This document shows positions 3 to 54,720 of a DNA stretch of 64,000 bases, piece by piece. This DNA comes from Anolis carolinensis (taxonomy: Eukaryota), in NCBI RefSeq assembly GCF_035594765.1, contig NC_085845.1:29506024-29570023 (forward strand). Direction: 5' to 3'. Within the stretch, counting starts at the first letter, position 1, and every line of letters begins with the position of its first letter. The notes under the pieces are model-generated. The model was given only the letters and a program-made list of their open reading frames with translations, made no database searches and had not been told where the DNA came from. A program made the translations under genes and the position numbers.

Positions 3-971
3 ACGCCGTTCTTTGCAAACTACGGCTTCCATCCACGTTTCTTTCCCCCTGTCATTGAAACTTCAGAAGTTCCCGCAGCAGAAGAATGGCTGCAGGAACT
101 CACAGCGGTACAACAACTTTTGCTCCAGCAACTGGAACAAGCCAAGGAGGACTATAAACGTCACGCGGACAAACATCGCCAGCCGGGCCCCGAAATCAAG
201 GTAGGAGATCGGGTTTTTCTGTCCACTCGCTTTTTGCCCTCCCATCGCCCTTGCCGGAAGTTAGATGCCCGTTTCATTGGTCCCTATCCAGTGGTGGCAC
301 AATTAAACCCCGTGACTTTCAAACTCCAACTTCCGCGTTCAATGCGCATTCACCCAGTGTTTCACCGCTCCCTGCTCCTTCCGGCGGATGGTGTGTGGCC
401 AGATGTAGACCGGCCGGCCCCCGTCCCTATTTTGGTGGATGGGGAGGACGAGTTCGAGGTTCAGGACATTTTGGATTCTCGCTTTCACCGCCGCCGCCTG
501 CAATATCTCATTGACTGGGTGGGTTTTGGCCCTGAGGAACGCTCTTGGGAAGACGCCTCCACAGTCCATGCTCCTGATCTAACCCGTCGCTTTCATCAGA
601 CCTATCCCGCCAAGCCGCGACCTCGCGCCTCGGGGAGAGAGTCCCAGTTTGGGAGGGGCCTTGAGGAGGGGGATAGTGTGATGACTCATGGGCCTTGTAG
701 TCCTGCTCATGACATTGTAATACCTGATGAAGAAGAAAACTTGGGTTTTTTACCTTCCCAGTCAGAACTGGAATCTTCTCAGCCAGATCTTTCCCAGGCA
801 GATCTGGGAACCTTGCACCTGCAAGAAAGTTGTGTCCCAGAAGTATGTCAAACAAACCCTGAGCCTACATCTCCCGTGTTCTCTCGCCATGAGTTTTGTA
901 AACAACAGAGGGGTTTGGAAGCAGCTTCGCGCAGGAGTGCTAGAATAGCAGCTAAGAATGTAGCCAATTAA
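3..971 (+). CDS. Gypsy Pol C-terminus: integrase end, GPY/F (SH3-like) region, chromodomain and LTR-encoded tail
   Basis: Frame is open from base 3 (TPFFANYGFHP). Motifs KLDARFIGPYPV, IHPVFHRSLL and chromodomain FEVQDILDSR...QYLIDWVGFGPEERSWED. Stop TAA at 969-971. Confidence 0.93.
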   Translation, partial: TPFFANYGFHPRFFPPVIETSEVPAAEEWLQELTAVQQLLLQQLEQAKEDYKRHADKHRQPGPEIKVGDRVFLSTRFLPSHRPCRKLDARFIGPYPVVAQLNPVTFKLQLPRSMRIHPVFHRSLLLPADGVWPDVDRPAPVPILVDGEDEFEVQDILDSRFHRRRLQYLIDWVGFGPEERSWEDASTVHAPDLTRRFHQTYPAKPRPRASGRESQFGRGLEEGDSVMTHGPCSPAHDIVIPDEEENLGFLPSQSELESSQPDLSQADLGTLHLQESCVPEVCQTNPEPTSPVFSRHEFCKQQRGLEAASRRSARIAAKNVAN

Positions 972-5050: not shown

Positions 5051-5464
5051 CATTAATTTTTATCAGCGTCCATGTAGAATTATTGGCCCCAAATAGCCAA
5101 AAAGAACCTCACACTCATATTGATTAATACATTTCAGATTTTACTCCTGTTTTTTTCTGATTGTATACTGAGTTAAAATAATACCAGCTCCTGGGGTTGG
5201 TTTATTTTAGCCAACCCCAGGAGCTGACAGAAAATATCTTGAGATAAACAAAACATATATGGATCTCTAAATTAAAATCAGAAAGAATAGGAACAAAGTC
5301 TGGGACTTTCGGTCTTGCAGATGAGCCCTGTAAATTGGAAATGACTTGGAGGAACACAACAAAAACAAATATTTAAAATGTGTTGTCGAAGGCTTTCATG
5401 GCCAGGATCACAGGGTTGTTGTATGTCTTTCGGGCTGTGTGGCCATGTTCCAGAAGCATTCTCT

Positions 5465-5505
5465 CCTGACGTTTCGCCCACATCAATGGCAGGCATCCTC
5501 AGAGG
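5465..5505 (-). ncRNA. Minimal type I hammerhead ribozyme (sense to ELOVL6)
   Basis: Reverse-complement copy of the same motif with an intact core. Confidence 0.8.
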
Positions 5506-5532
5506 TTGTGAGGTAACCTCACAACCTCACAA

Positions 5533-5573
5533 CCTCTGAGGATGCCTGCCATAGATGTGGGCGAAACGTCAGG
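5533..5573 (+). ncRNA. Minimal type I hammerhead ribozyme
   Basis: CCT-CTGAGGA-stem II (GCCTGC/GTGGGC with GU pairs)-GAAA-CG-TC-AGG. Palindromic ACGT replaces stem III; predicted cleavage after C5570. Confidence 0.8.
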
Positions 5574-6062
5574 AGAGAATGCTTCTGGAACATGGCCACA
5601 CAGCCCGAAAGACATACAACAACCCCAAATATTTAAAATGCTTGTGTAACTATCTGTATATTCATCTCTGTATATTAAATTCAAAAGATTATCAAAACTT
5701 TAAAAACCCCAAACAAAACTGCCAGATATGCAAAGGTTTCAGATAAAAGAAGGAATAAATCCAAAATCCCATTCTCTAATTCATCATAACCAAAATACAT
5801 TTATTTCAGAAAAATGCATCTGTTATTCCTGACATGACATTTATATTCAAGCTACTTTAAGTAGGTCAGAAACTATATTTATATATATTAGGTCACTTCA
5901 CTGCTTTTTAATTAGCTCCTTGTTTCTGACTTTTAAAGGTCACAAATTATCTATATTATCTCCATACGATATTTCCAAAAACTTGAAATAATCTCATGTT
6001 ACTGCCATATTGGCCTGACATAATCTGTGCAGGAATTCTCACTTCACCTCCAAGACATTTTA

Positions 6063-43655: not shown

Positions 43656-44546
43656 CTTTCACCCTCCCTATTCAACTTGTACGCAGAACACATCATGCGA
43701 CATGCGGGGCTTGAGGAATCCAAAGCCGGAGTTAAAATTGCTGGAAGAAATATTAACAACCTTAGGTAGGCAGATGACACCACTCTGATGGCCGAAAGCG
43801 AGGAGGAGTTGAAGAGCCTTATCACCAAGGTGAAAGAAGAAAGTGCAAAAGCTGGGTTGCAGTTAAACGTCAAGAAAACCAAGATCATGGCAACTACACC
43901 TATTGATAACTGGCAAATAGAGGGAGAAAGCGTGGAGGCAGTGACAGACTTTATATTTCTAGGCGCGAAGATCACTGCAGATGCAGACTCCAGCCAGGAA
44001 ATCAGAAGACGTTTACTTCTTGGGAGGAGAGCAATGGCCAACGTTGACAAAATAGTGAAGAGCAGAGACATCACACTGGCAACAAAGGTCCGCATAGTCA
44101 AAGCAATGGTATTCCCCATAGTAACCTATGGATGCGAGAGCTGGACCACAAGGAAGGCTGAGCAAAGGAAGATAGATGCTTTTGAACTCTGGTGCTGGAG
44201 GAAAATCCTGAGAGTGCCTTGGACCGCAAGAAGATCCAACCAGTCCATCCTCCAGGAAATAATGCCCAGCTGCTCACTGGAGGGAAGGATATTAGAGGCA
44301 AAGCTGAAGTATTTTGGCCACATCATGAGGAGACAGGAAAGATTGGAAAAGATCACGATGCTGGGGAAAATGGAAGGAAAAAGGAAGAGAGGCCGACCAA
44401 GGGCAAGATGGATGGATGGTATCCTTGAAGTGACTGGGTTGACCTTGAAGGAACTGGGGGTGGTGACGGCCGACAGGGAGCTCTGGCATGGGCTGGTCCA
44501 TGAGGCCACGAAGAGTCGGAGATGACTAAACAACAGCAGCAGGAGT
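43656..44546 (+). mobile_element. RTE-BovB LINE, 5'-truncated
   Basis: GVKIAGRNINNLR*ADDTTLMAESEEELKSL, YGCESWT, RKIDAFELWCWR, GKRKRGRPRARWMDGI. Tail GAAGAGTCGGAGATGACTAAACAAC; TSD CTGATGTTA/CCGATGTTA. Confidence 0.95.
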
Positions 44547-48279: not shown

Positions 48280-49818
48280 GGGCTCTTCCAGACAGGCTCA
48301 AAAATGTGGGACCTGTCGGTCTTTTATCTGAGGCATCCAAATTACGCTCACCAATGCGTCGTCTTCATCCTGGAAAGAAGTGACAAGTGGAGTGCCGCAG
48401 GGCTCCGTCCTGGGCCCGGTTCTATTCAACATCTTTATTAACAACTTAGACGAAGGGTTAGAAGGCACAATCATAAAGTTTGCAGACGACACAAAACTGG
48501 GAGGGATAGCTAACACTCCAGAAGACAGGAGCAGAATTCAAAATGATCTTGACAGACTAGAGAGATGGGCCGAAACTAACAAAATGAAGTTCAACAGGGA
48601 CAAATGCAAGATACTTCACTTCGGCAGAAAAAATGGAAATCAAAGATACAGAATGGGGGACGCCTGGCTTGACAGCACTGTGTGTGAAAAAGACCTTGGA
48701 GTCGTCGTGGACAACAAGTTAAACATGAGCCAACAATGTGATGCGGCAGTGAAAAAAGCCAACGGGATTCTGGCCTGCATCAATAGGGGAATAGCGTCTA
48801 GATCCAGGGAAGTCATGCTCCCCCTCTATTCTGCCTTGGTCAGACCACACCTGGAATACTGCGTCCAATTCTGGGCACCACAGTTGAAGGGAGATGTTGA
48901 CAAGCTGGAAAGCGTCCAGAGGAGGGCAACTAAAATGATCAAGGGTCTGGAGAACAAGCCCTATGAGGAGCGGCGTAAAGAGCTGGGCATATTTAGCCTG
49001 CAGAAGAGAAGGCTGAGAGGAGACATGATAGCCATGTACAAATACGTGAAGGGAAGTCATAGGCAGGAGGGAGCAAGCTTGTTTTCTGCTGCCCTGCAGA
49101 CTAGGACACGGAACAATGGCTTCAAACTACAGGAAAGGAGATTCCACCTGAACATCAGGAAGAACTTCCTCACTGTGAGAGCTGTTCGACAGTGGAACTC
49201 TCTCCCCCAGACTCCTTCTTTGGAAGCTTTTAAGCAGAGGCTGGATGGCCATCTGTTGGGGGGTGCTTTGAATGCGATTTCCTGCTTCTTAGCAGGGGAT
49301 TGGACTGAATGGCCCATGAGGTCTCTTCCAACTCTACTATTCTATGATTCTATGATTCTATGAAAAGGCGAATAAATTCAGAACAAAGCAGAGTTTACCT
49401 GCTTTGTTCTGAATTAATTAGCTACCCCATTAGATCCAGGCCTTTTTAAAAGGACAGGGTCTAATGGGGTATTGGGCCTGTGGGGACTCACTTCTGGGAT
49501 TACCCAAGATGAGTCCCCACAGCCATCTTTCTTAAATATATCCTGTAATTGATGATAATGAAACCAGTTATTTATCCCTAATTCTTCTCTCCCTTTTAGT
49601 TTTCATTGTCCTTTTTCTTCAATAAAGATAATACTTATAAGTTCTCAGTTCCTCATTATATGCTGTTTTAACACTGCTTCCAAAGGATGAAGCCATAAAA
49701 GGATTTTCTGCTCCATCACTTCCATCTGGACACCCCACCAGGAAATCCACTTTTTTGGGGGGGAGGGGTGGAATTAAACACACAAATGTGCGGGTTAAAC
49801 CCATGTCTGGAAATGTCC
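48280..49818. mobile_element. PIF/Harbinger-like non-autonomous transposon hosting a CR1
   Basis: TAT|GGGCTCTTCCAGACA ... TGTCTGGAAATGTCC|TAT (3-bp TSD); a related terminus occurs at about 55805-55848. Confidence 0.6.
48346..49363 (+). mobile_element. Young 5'-truncated CR1 LINE with open RT C-terminal frame
   Basis: [38 protein letters not shown]; (TTCTATGA)3 tail. Confidence 0.97.
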
Positions 49819-51530: not shown

Positions 51531-52671
51531 AGCTGTTCCTTTACCCCAGATGAACTACTGCAGTTGGATGGTGCCTAGAGCTTCACCCCTCCTGCCAGAG
51601 AAGAGGCACACCAGTGCTGTCAAACTATATCATGCAGCCAAATGCAAAGGAAACATGCACATGAAGATTTATGTTCTGCTGGCAGTATTGGTAGATTTCA
51701 GTCTGAAAAAAGCAGCTGTGCCTGCCATGTAGCCAAGTGTTTAAAGTAGGTTCTGTATATTCTGTGATACCCCCTCCCCCAAATTATGCCAGTGTTCAAA
51801 GTTGATAGATACAGGGTGTAGTTTTGTGCAAGTATACTGTAGAAAGAGGTATCTTGTACTTTCTTATGCGATTGACTTTCTGCCATGCTTCTTGCAAGTG
51901 AAGACTTATGCCAGTTTAGGATGCTTCCAACCATACAGCGCCTAGCAATACTGATTAACACATAATAGTCACACACCCTTTTAGGGGTATTTTTGCTTTC
52001 CTCACATAATAGTTGCAGCCTTGATTCATCTGCTAAACATACTGCTAGCAGATGACCAGCATATGGAAGCAGAGGAAGACAGCTGTAAAAGGTCTAGCTA
52101 GGCTTCCATCTCCACGTACGTATCTAGCTGTACTGAATAAACAACAGCTTTGCACATCTGTTCGCCCTCTTTCAGCTATGACACTCCACTCACCTGTACA
52201 ACCCAGTGCTCACCCAAAAGCACTGAGTTGAAGAGAGTAAAAAGTTTCCCCTGACGTTAAGTACCACTCTCTTAAATCCCGTGCTTTTGGATTCAGCAGC
52301 ATGAAGCACTATAGCTGAAAAGGAAGTTAGCATGTGGGCTATTTTTTTCATTGTGTAATAGTCACGCCTCCACTTTTTTTTTTTTGTAAAAGTGACTATT
52401 ATATGATAAAATATGGAATTCAGACTTTTCTTTCTTCACAGATTTTTCTATGGTTAATAAATAGTTATCCAAAGAAGCATAGAAAAAAGTGGAAATTCAG
52501 GAAAAAGGACAAAAGTGGAAGAACATGAAATAAATATCCGACTATAAGTTATCTGATGTAGAAAGGTCAGTAGTAAACAAAGGTCTATCATTTGTTCCCA
52601 CCCCTAAATTTAATGCATTTTGAGCACGAATAGATTTATTCAAGCTATTTAGAACCATCCGCTTAAGAGAC

Positions 52672-54720
52672 ATGTTTAAAGACAGCATATCCAACACAAC
52701 CACAGATCCTTTCAAACCTAAAAGTACCTTCTGCCCTTCCACAGATAACATTTACATTAAATGCTTTGAAAAAGCTGTAGAGAGGGACTTTAACAAGCTA
52801 ACTACTCATAGACAACCATACCACTCAAATTTATCAGAATTAGAAAGAACCACTCTGGTCAAATTGAGCAACCTTAAAGAGGTAGTCTGGAAACCAGCAG
52901 ATAAAGGGGGAGCTATAGTATTACTTAACAAAAGAGATTATATTAAGGAAGTCAACCTCCAGTTATCAAATAGTAAATTCTACCAACCTATTGCAACAGA
53001 CCCCACTAAACACATTCAGTCCCTTATTAGGGTGGTGTGTCAAGAGGGATTGTCCATGGGATTTATTTCTTCTTCTACATTTAAATACTTACAAAATGAC
53101 TTCCCCAGGATACCTATCTTTTATATTCTTCCTAAGATTCATAAAGGCATCACTCCACCCCCAGGCCGACCTATTATTTCTGGTTCATCTTCTGTATTGG
53201 AACCAGTTGCTAAATATCTAGACTCCTTTTACCAACCATTTGTCCCTCTCTGTGATTCCTACATTAAAGACACAAAGCACTTCATTAATATCGTAGAAAA
53301 TCTCAAAATTGAGGACGACAGCATTTTAGTTACGATTGATGTCACCTCACTCTATACTAACATTCCACTAGATGAGGCTCGTACCATCATAGAGAATATC
53401 CTTCGTAGGAGAACAAAATTGCAACCACCTACACATTTCTTGATGGACCTGTTAGATATAGTACTGGAGAAAAATTATTTCCGTTTTCAAAACCAATTTT
53501 ACTTTCAGACCTTCGGTGTCGCTATGGGAAGTCCGTTAGCCCCATCGATTGCCAATCTATTCATGGCACATTTAGAAAACACTATATTGCTTAATCCATC
53601 TTTAAATATGTACTATTCTAATATAATATACTATGGCCGATTTATTGATGATATATTCATAGTATTTAAAACAACTGAGGCCGCAGTAGGATTCTCTAAT
53701 TGGATTGACACTATACATACGTCTATTAAGTTTACCAGTCATCTCAACCTGTCACATATCAATTTTTTAGATGTTACTGTGTATAAATATCATAACAAAC
53801 TTTTGGTCAAGAACTTCAGAAAACCATCAGATAAAAATTCTTTTCTTCATTATAACAGCTTCCACCACTTTGGTTTAAAGACCAATCTTCCATTTTCACA
53901 ACTACTTAGACTAAAGCGTAACTCAAGCTCTAATGAACACTTCATTCATGAAAGCCTGACCTTAAGCCAGGAGTTTAGAAGTAGAGGCTATCCTAAACAT
54001 GTCATCAAAAAGGCATTAATTAAAGCTGAAAAAACTGATAGAACCACCCTACTGAAAGAATCTGCTAAACCAACTAAAAATCAAATTATCTGGACACAAG
54101 AATTATCGCATTACTCCAAACACATAATCCAAATTATAAAAAAGCACTGGCATCTTCTTCAAGATATTTCAGGTTGTGATAAATTACCTATTTTTGGAAA
54201 CAGGCGTACTAAAAATATTAGAGAATATTTAATCCATACAGATTTAATCACTCCCATTAGTACACCGAAGAGCACCCTGAGAGGCCATTATCCTTGTGGT
54301 CACTGTAAGTGTTGTCCTCAATCTTGGAAGACTAAGGAGATATATAATCATAGGAACAAAGTGGGCACCACACTAAAACATTTTTCTACTTGTAATAGCA
54401 GCAATGTAATCTACCTCTTGACATGTGGCTGTGATCTCTGGTATATCGGAAAAACAACCAGATCCTTGAGAATCAGAATCTCTGAACATAAATCCAGAAT
54501 CAAAAATTTATCTACAGAATCTCTTTTATATTCACACTTCACCCAATACAAACATTCATCTACCTCATTTAAATTTTGTGCTCTGGAATGCATCTCTCAA
54601 AAACCTTTCATGGACTTGGAAAAACTATTATCCCAAAGGGAAATGTACTGGATCTTTAAGTTTAAAACCTTTTCCCCTCAGGGACTTAATGAATCACTTA
54701 ATTTTAGCTGTTTCCTTTAA
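52672..54720 (+). CDS. Penelope-type reverse transcriptase / GIY-YIG endonuclease (682 aa open; N-terminus disrupted upstream)
   Basis: KPADKGGAIV, GRPIISG, IDVTSLYTNIP, GVAMGSPLAPSIANLFM, RFIDDIF, NFLDV; linker CGHCKCC; endonuclease NVIYLLTCGCDLWYIGKTTRSLRIRISEH...REMYWI...PQGLNE. Confidence 0.95.
   Translation: MFKDSISNTTTDPFKPKSTFCPSTDNIYIKCFEKAVERDFNKLTTHRQPYHSNLSELERTTLVKLSNLKEVVWKPADKGGAIVLLNKRDYIKEVNLQLSNSKFYQPIATDPTKHIQSLIRVVCQEGLSMGFISSSTFKYLQNDFPRIPIFYILPKIHKGITPPPGRPIISGSSSVLEPVAKYLDSFYQPFVPLCDSYIKDTKHFINIVENLKIEDDSILVTIDVTSLYTNIPLDEARTIIENILRRRTKLQPPTHFLMDLLDIVLEKNYFRFQNQFYFQTFGVAMGSPLAPSIANLFMAHLENTILLNPSLNMYYSNIIYYGRFIDDIFIVFKTTEAAVGFSNWIDTIHTSIKFTSHLNLSHINFLDVTVYKYHNKLLVKNFRKPSDKNSFLHYNSFHHFGLKTNLPFSQLLRLKRNSSSNEHFIHESLTLSQEFRSRGYPKHVIKKALIKAEKTDRTTLLKESAKPTKNQIIWTQELSHYSKHIIQIIKKHWHLLQDISGCDKLPIFGNRRTKNIREYLIHTDLITPISTPKSTLRGHYPCGHCKCCPQSWKTKEIYNHRNKVGTTLKHFSTCNSSNVIYLLTCGCDLWYIGKTTRSLRIRISEHKSRIKNLSTESLLYSHFTQYKHSSTSFKFCALECISQKPFMDLEKLLSQREMYWIFKFKTFSPQGLNESLNFSCFL

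Follow-up and report, generated by a model that had tools for sequence, protein, structure and literature searches.

The locus analysed here raises the question of why the reading frame of an integrase should continue past its chromodomain into a long terminal repeat (LTR), and what the peptide encoded there might do. The DNA (hereafter the window) is a stretch of 64,000 nucleotides from Anolis carolinensis and contains the 3' terminal part of a chromovirus (Ty3/gypsy) that is intact and whose features in the window all lie on the plus strand. The 3' end of pol, i.e. the integrase C-terminal region, is one open frame of 322 amino acids (positions 3-971, TAA at 969-971). It belongs to a pol of 1261 codons, counted stop to stop in the -1 frame (L031:6186-9971, in upstream sequence), in which protease-like, RT, RNase H, integrase, SH3 and chromodomain parts follow each other. 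Within the window, a Tf2-1-like SH3 (GPY/F) domain of integrase is found at 204-380 (aa 68-126; Pfam PF24626, E 4e-16) and the chromodomain at 453-599 (aa 151-199; Pfam PF00385, above cut-off). The polypurine tract (PPT, 663-676), recognised by its sequence, adjoins the LTR start and is read through by pol in frame. The 3' LTR (TGTGATG...CGTGACA, 677-1650) has 974 bp and is 100% identical over this length to the 974-bp 5' LTR (L031:4228-5201, likewise upstream), and a target-site duplication, CTTGG (1651-1655), flanks both ends of the element.

Two LTRs, a target-site duplication, gag followed by protease, RT, RNase H and integrase, and a chromodomain at the integrase C-terminus identify the element as a chromovirus. 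Its gag comprises 343 codons with a zinc knuckle, and env is missing. Vertebrate Tf1/sushi chromoviruses of the Amn/sushi-ichi type likewise combine a gag zinc knuckle, the order PR-RT-RH-IN-SH3-chromodomain, the lack of env and a predicted self-priming primer-binding site (PBS). The lizard element groups with amphibian and fish chromovirus families in trees built without a named reference element. The database proteins nearest to the tail-bearing Pol are Anolis carolinensis entries. The family is young and large: its best 40 DNA matches are 99-100% identical, and copies are dispersed along all large contigs. At the three aromatic-cage positions of HP1, the aligned chromodomain has F, W and F, so that the cage is intact and of the group I type defined in PMC3605345. 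As methylated H3K9 is bound by MAGGY's chromodomain, also of group I (PMC4600332), the lizard chromodomain may, by analogy, read the same mark. The window further contains three RT ORF pieces of other retroelements (43770-44525, 48332-49363 and 52624-54720), several dispersed repeats and short inverted repeats, for example one with arms at 5413-5514 and 5524-5625 (99%).

An earlier sequence-only reading of this stretch had proposed that pol crosses the PPT into U3 and ends close to its stop in an HMGN-like motif. This proved correct: the frame passes the chromodomain and the PPT and adds an LTR-encoded integrase tail at 678-971, made of 97 sense codons (678-968) and the TAA, all inside the 3' LTR. 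An in-frame ATG at 681 opens 96 of these codons, as also stated there. The tail consists of an acidic Ser/Pro-rich linker with conserved islands, followed by a basic tip, RRSARIAAK (930-956), which resembles HMGN, Dot5 and Dsup and is predicted to anchor by arginine on the acidic patch of H2A-H2B; pol ends RRSARIAAK-NVAN-stop. In column tallies of 77 distinct copies, the islands DE[ED]EN[LM]GF (726-749), SPxFxR (870-887) and RG are as conserved as the motif. The first of these may resemble FxGF-type LEDGF/TND-binding motifs, but without the first Phe. The tail of 96 residues had no Pfam match at E up to 1 and no PDB match at E up to 10. The presence of RRS.R[LI] exceeds chance: shuffling these residues yields it at p = 8e-5, and elsewhere in the window the pattern is absent from all 124,596 residues of the six frames.

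The same stop was reached in all 30 of the closest copies, chosen by likeness to the query, so that no family-wide stop lies near the PPT; as these copies are 99-100% identical, their open frames prove little. None of 150 scored tail matches had an internal stop in the tail, and about 120 of them, counted by eye, lay within the 1261-codon frame. Searches with the tail as query favour intact tails; an unbiased set was provided by 25 older copies picked by the chromodomain alone. Here the motif was present in 24 copies, and pol itself reached it in 12. The LTR frame was open to the motif in 21, even where pol was out of frame upstream. In 11 of the 25 (L136-L160) the LTR start was out of frame with pol, apparently through decay or length changes in or near the G-run of the PPT. 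Across five subfamily groups, 109 of 120 copies had RRS.R[IL] in frame from the LTR ATG. Among the 77 distinct tails, R1 was kept in 75, R2 in 76, S3 in 73 and R5 in 74; over all families that carry the motif, position 4 varies (A/L/V/P/R) while these four residues stay, and half of the anole subfamilies have RRSLR instead of RRSAR.

Near-identical copies cannot reveal selection, and diverged subfamilies were therefore collected, giving 120 loci in five groups. Frame preservation and dN/dS over the LTR-coded tail, suggested earlier as a check, both indicated that the motif is conserved as protein under purifying selection. Pairwise comparison covered four groups with 95 copies, of which 25 were dropped for stops in the compared interval and 70 were used; it gave between-subfamily dN/dS of 0.17-0.56 for the LTR-coded tail, 0.03-0.08 for the integrase core and 0.01-0.15 for the chromodomain. 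For the 77 distinct open tails, the codon-model omega was 0.342 (lnL -3287.5 vs -3357.4 at omega 1, i.e. 69.9 better). By part, it was 0.195 for the nine codons of the motif, 0.175 for the first eight codons and 0.429 for the other 67; these values are conservative, since neutral decay on the terminal branches is part of them. Bootstrap intervals of pN/pS for the pol frame stayed below 1 in five of six subfamily pairs; that of the pair C110-D117 included 1. The other five frames of the tail hold stops, with pN/pS mostly near 1 except in the reverse frame that shares third positions.

The coding part of U3 varied in steps of three (252, 255, 258, 273 or 288 bases), while non-coding LTR was full of gaps of one or two bases. 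Subfamilies differ at 22-38% of U3 bases and, within the motif, third positions differ between groups at 45-77% of codons; even the arginine codons change (CGC/CGG, AGG/CGA/AGA and AGA/CGG). The motif is thus preserved at the level of protein, not of DNA. These observations bear on another reading of the locus, namely that the read-through is a neutral accident, a stop lost in a young family. The near-identity of the closest copies would suit such an accident. It is refuted by omega well below 1, frame-preserving lengths and synonymous turnover across subfamilies that differ this much in U3, and its probability is practically negligible.

Two further points of the sequence-only reading were not supported. 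One was that the tail is encoded in dual-use promoter DNA. Between subfamilies, dS was 0.42-1.37 in the tail vs 0.29-0.46 in the integrase core (up to about 3.5-fold higher), and since tail dS exceeds that of the core, promoter constraint is not apparent in the tail codons past the first eight. The excess may come from rapid turnover of U3 or from its exchange among subfamilies. Those promoter words that can be recognised are found 3' of the pol stop: the E2F-like GGCGGGAAA (1057-1065) and TATATA (1075-1080), which together form a predicted core promoter. The 10 bases at 1106-1115, 31 bases past the TATA (1075), are complementary to the PBS and would serve as transcript start and self-primer; in self-priming, the PBS is complementary to the 5' end of the transcript (PMC4600332). 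The transcript is therefore predicted to start near 1106. A second 10-base PBS match is found at 997-1006, so that the two matches lie on either side of the TATA box. As both lie 3' of the stop, the tail would be wholly U3 and present on element RNA only at the 3' LTR. A predicted polyadenylation signal, AATAAA, is located at 1582-1587. In 106 of 120 copies, spread over all five groups, GG[CT]GGGAAA stands immediately 5' of the TATA box (1057-1080 in the window); this is presumably an E2F-like site, which may tie transcription to the cell cycle.

The other concerned the 96-codon ORF that the ATG at 681 opens in any LTR copy; it could be argued that a separate 96-residue protein made from it in 5' or solo LTRs is what selection preserves. 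Conservation of the ATG is indeed high (76 of 77 tails), and in the older copies the LTR frame is mostly open to the motif (the 21 of 25 above). However, the ATG occupies LTR bases 5-7, as part of the terminal TGTGATG, and thus lies inside the att end; the LTR terminus fits the Sushi-type att TGTYANR (PMC3601003) at six of seven positions. It is also placed upstream of the TATA (1075) and 425 bases upstream of the predicted start (1106), Met is absent or shifted there in frog and viper tails, and the register from pol to LTR is kept in all young subfamilies. We therefore regard a separate LTR protein as very improbable.

The motif recurs in a related squamate, the wall lizard Podarcis. The Podarcis family shares 58% identity over 71% of the query, and the register of the junction is shared (GDGVM vs GDSVM). 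In its members P0009, P0141, P0146, P0147 and P0148, an unalignable acidic linker is followed by RRSARL (RRSARLKA near the end), and SP stands 18-20 residues before the tip (cf. the SPxFxR island). The linkers of Podarcis and anole are considered non-alignable because a search of the anole genome with the Podarcis tail gave a single match, at E 8.7. In the frog Leptobrachium, the clusters P0197 and P0198 have RRSPRL about 82 residues past the chromodomain, and P0066 has RRSRRL; LTR junctions in Podarcis and frog are placed by protein register only. The caveat raised with the original proposal, that RRSxR strings are common in integrase tails, fails for chromoviruses: RRS.R[LI] was found in 3 of 169 non-squamate chromovirus tails, all from this one frog, with 0.13 expected from shuffles. 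The three matches are not independent, as two come from sister families, and the 169 include as misses the models of Ranitomeya and others whose tails are spliced to host exons. RRSxR may occur in Copia integrases. Among 131 new representatives from a profile search, none had RRS.R[LI]; the matches were ranked by integrase core, not by tail, and the profile (435 positions) took in the upstream part of P0147.

Not all squamate tips are of this kind. In the worm lizard Rhineura floridana (P0330), junction and acidic linker are as in anole, and the tip is KRGRPVSLRPKR, with an AT-hook-like KRGRP and no RRSxR. Vipera P0258 as well as P0181 end in arginine runs without the motif. Each of these three is represented by one gene model. 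P0004, with a short tail, was considered as a further counter-example and rejected, its genomic family carrying the motif. In the trees, the Anolis, Podarcis and Rhineura families formed one clade with bootstrap 100 (inner order 47), joined by the pair of viper and P0181 at 87, and the frog families fell into a sister amphibian-fish clade. For the first tree, 15 near-duplicates and all proteins covering less than 85% of the integrase were removed; the second used 57 hand-picked rows, and neither included a named reference element. From this, the long acidic LTR tail of 100-140 residues can be taken to characterise the squamate clade, in which the motif would be either ancestral and replaced in some lines, or of multiple origins; the frog motif probably arose separately. 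Fish Tf1/sushi relatives (P0074, P0081, P0097, P0102, P0113 and others) differ in that an AT-hook-like GRGRP stands between chromodomain and PPT, and they end at a conserved SPE[FY]/SPD[FY] stop about 20 codons past the apparent PPT (placed by protein register only); this end is reminiscent of the SPxF island in lizard tails. The Pol clusters P0149, P0150 and P0011 hold or match isoforms of the lizard RefSeq models PCBD2, KCNQ5 and TM9SF2, which suggests exonisation or misannotation of these models.

What the tip might bind can be approached from its likeness to proteins of known action. It equals the yeast Dot5 segment RRSARIAT at seven of eight residues, and in Dot5, a change of R6, R7 or R10 or a mutated acidic patch abolishes binding to nucleosomes (PMC13347269). 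In the cryo-EM structure of Dsup (RRSSRLTS), R1 contacts H2B Q47, the serine contacts H2A E61/E64, and the fifth residue anchors on H2A E61/D90/E92 (PMC12487698). The residues that touch the patch or are needed in Dot5, Dsup and HMGN2 are thus, as far as described in these sources, those fixed in lizard tails, i.e. R1, R2, S3 and R5. The known patch residues are H2A E56, E61, E64, D90 and E92 and H2B Q47 and E113.

Modelled in complex with H2A-H2B of the same genome, the last 40 residues scored 0.78, and the best of three controls 0.02; among solved pairs 51 of 78 attain the mark applied, among mismatched pairs 2 of 108, and peptides fall outside this calibration. Runs agreed in at least 76% of contacts, with partner pLDDT of at least 58. 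The modelled contacts follow the Dsup register (R1 to H2B Q47, S3 to H2A E61/E64, R5 to H2A E61, with D90 in the interface); patch residues E61, E64, D90 and Q47 are named in the model, and E56, E92 and E113 are not. The placement of RRSARIAAK on the acidic patch, as originally proposed, was thus obtained as a predicted interaction. As the model may recall solved HMGN, Dsup or LANA structures, it speaks for likeness, not for binding; AlphaFold 3 misplaced HMGN2 (PMC12487698). HMGN, Dsup and Dot5 have in common with the lizard tail an RRSxR[LI] core within a low-complexity chain, and differ in that the lizard motif is placed at the very C-terminal end of a Pol protein from a retrotransposon. 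HMGN proteins are small and stand alone with a full HMGN domain, whereas the lizard tail is part of Pol and alike in the motif alone. HMGN has a lysine-rich DNA-binding part downstream of its motif; only four residues follow the lizard motif, so that such a part is absent.

The tip could instead be a generic basic signal, such as an NLS or a DNA/RNA-binding patch, its HMGN likeness being incidental. The ends of Rhineura, Vipera and P0181, which lack the motif, suggest that a basic tip of any kind may suffice, many of the short tails of fungi and fish are basic, and some integrases of retrotransposons are known to carry an NLS at the C-terminus (PMC3605345). Yet a generic signal would allow exchange of R and K, and R1, R2 and R5 are never K in the 77 tails, where S3 and the hydrophobic residue 6 are also kept; moreover, the same spacing recurs in Podarcis and frog. 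We consider this reading unlikely, and still less probable is that the motif serves as a kinase or docking site (basophilic RRxS/RxS), regulating the integrase or recruiting a host factor together with two of the islands. Such a role would agree with the serine in 73 of 77 tails, with DE[ED]EN[LM]GF and SPxFxR being as conserved as the motif, and with the diverse C-terminal regions that set the targeting of Copia integrases (PMC11735389). A phospho-site, however, needs neither R5 nor residue 6, and the conserved serine is also explained by an arginine anchor, because the serine of Dsup contacts H2A E61/E64. A kinase or docking role and an anchor can coexist.

We therefore favour, with moderate confidence, an integrase with two chromatin tethers, the chromodomain and a predicted HMGN-type arginine anchor on the H2A-H2B acidic patch. 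Read-through, protein-level selection on the tail, recurrence of the motif in other families and an intact HP1-type cage are the observations from which this reading starts. Cleavage of Pol would release an integrase in which the SH3 domain, the chromodomain and about 110 flexible residues precede the anchor. The latter would grip nucleosomes whatever their marks, and the chromodomain would read methylated H3K9, so that the pre-integration complex could attach to chromatin in two places. The grip of the anchor could be turned off if the motif serine is phosphorylated, as proposed for HMGN, and the slot at the tip would be modular, filled in sister families by an AT-hook-like or plain basic tip. 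In 65 3' flanks, no 10-bp A/T periodicity was detected (p = 0.82), the number of sites being too small either way.

A further-reaching version is offered tentatively, as one that we find rather doubtful as a whole. The U3 end of vertebrate chromoviruses might be an exchangeable coding "tether slot", holding an HMGN-type anchor in anole, wall lizard and frog (with at least two origins), an AT-hook-like tip in the worm lizard and other basic tips elsewhere. The lizard integrase would then be a bivalent reader of methyl-H3K9 and acidic patch, switched by serine phosphorylation and deciding the landing site.

Extension of pol into the 3' LTR is known for plant CRM elements of group A and some beet elements (PMC3059260, PMC3605345). 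The parallel to CRM drawn in the sequence-only reading holds for the architecture, in which pol runs into the 3' LTR, but not for the tail itself: the CR motif of CRM replaces the chromodomain, whereas here the tail is added behind an intact one. Group A CRM elements are described as centromeric, while the lizard copies are dispersed and belong to a vertebrate clade; the lizard element is a chromovirus and a member of neither CRM nor HMGN. Tethering to the acidic patch is described for foamy virus Gag, probably MLV p12, KSHV LANA and hCMV IE1, and the Gag tether of foamy virus shapes its integration sites (PMC9040877). These are, or probably are, arginine anchors of genome parasites (in foamy virus the Gag CBS), as predicted for the lizard integrase. 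They reside in Gag products or herpesvirus proteins, whereas the lizard one would belong to the integrase itself, combined there with a chromodomain, and would have an LTR as its coding DNA. In the accessible text of the review cited (PMC9040877), neither "retrotransposon" nor "HMGN" occurs, and a literature search that covered few subscription papers returned none that describes the lizard tail or an HMGN-like motif within the integrase of a retrotransposon. The read-through of pol in this family may already be on record. A working HMGN-type motif is listed for few proteins (HMGN, Dsup and Dot5), with more expected (PMC13347269, PMC12487698). According to a review, HMGN1 has been fused to an engineered non-LTR retrotransposon protein (PMC13708176), and the lizard family would be a natural counterpart of this fusion.

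How vertebrate chromoviruses hold on to chromatin and choose their sites is a largely untested field. If the anchor works, the family would add a mobile element to the known cases and an instance of mimicry of host chromatin proteins, one accessible to a test with a single peptide. The family also shows that LTR sequence can, in part, follow the evolution of coding DNA, which bears on the dating of LTRs and on their annotation.
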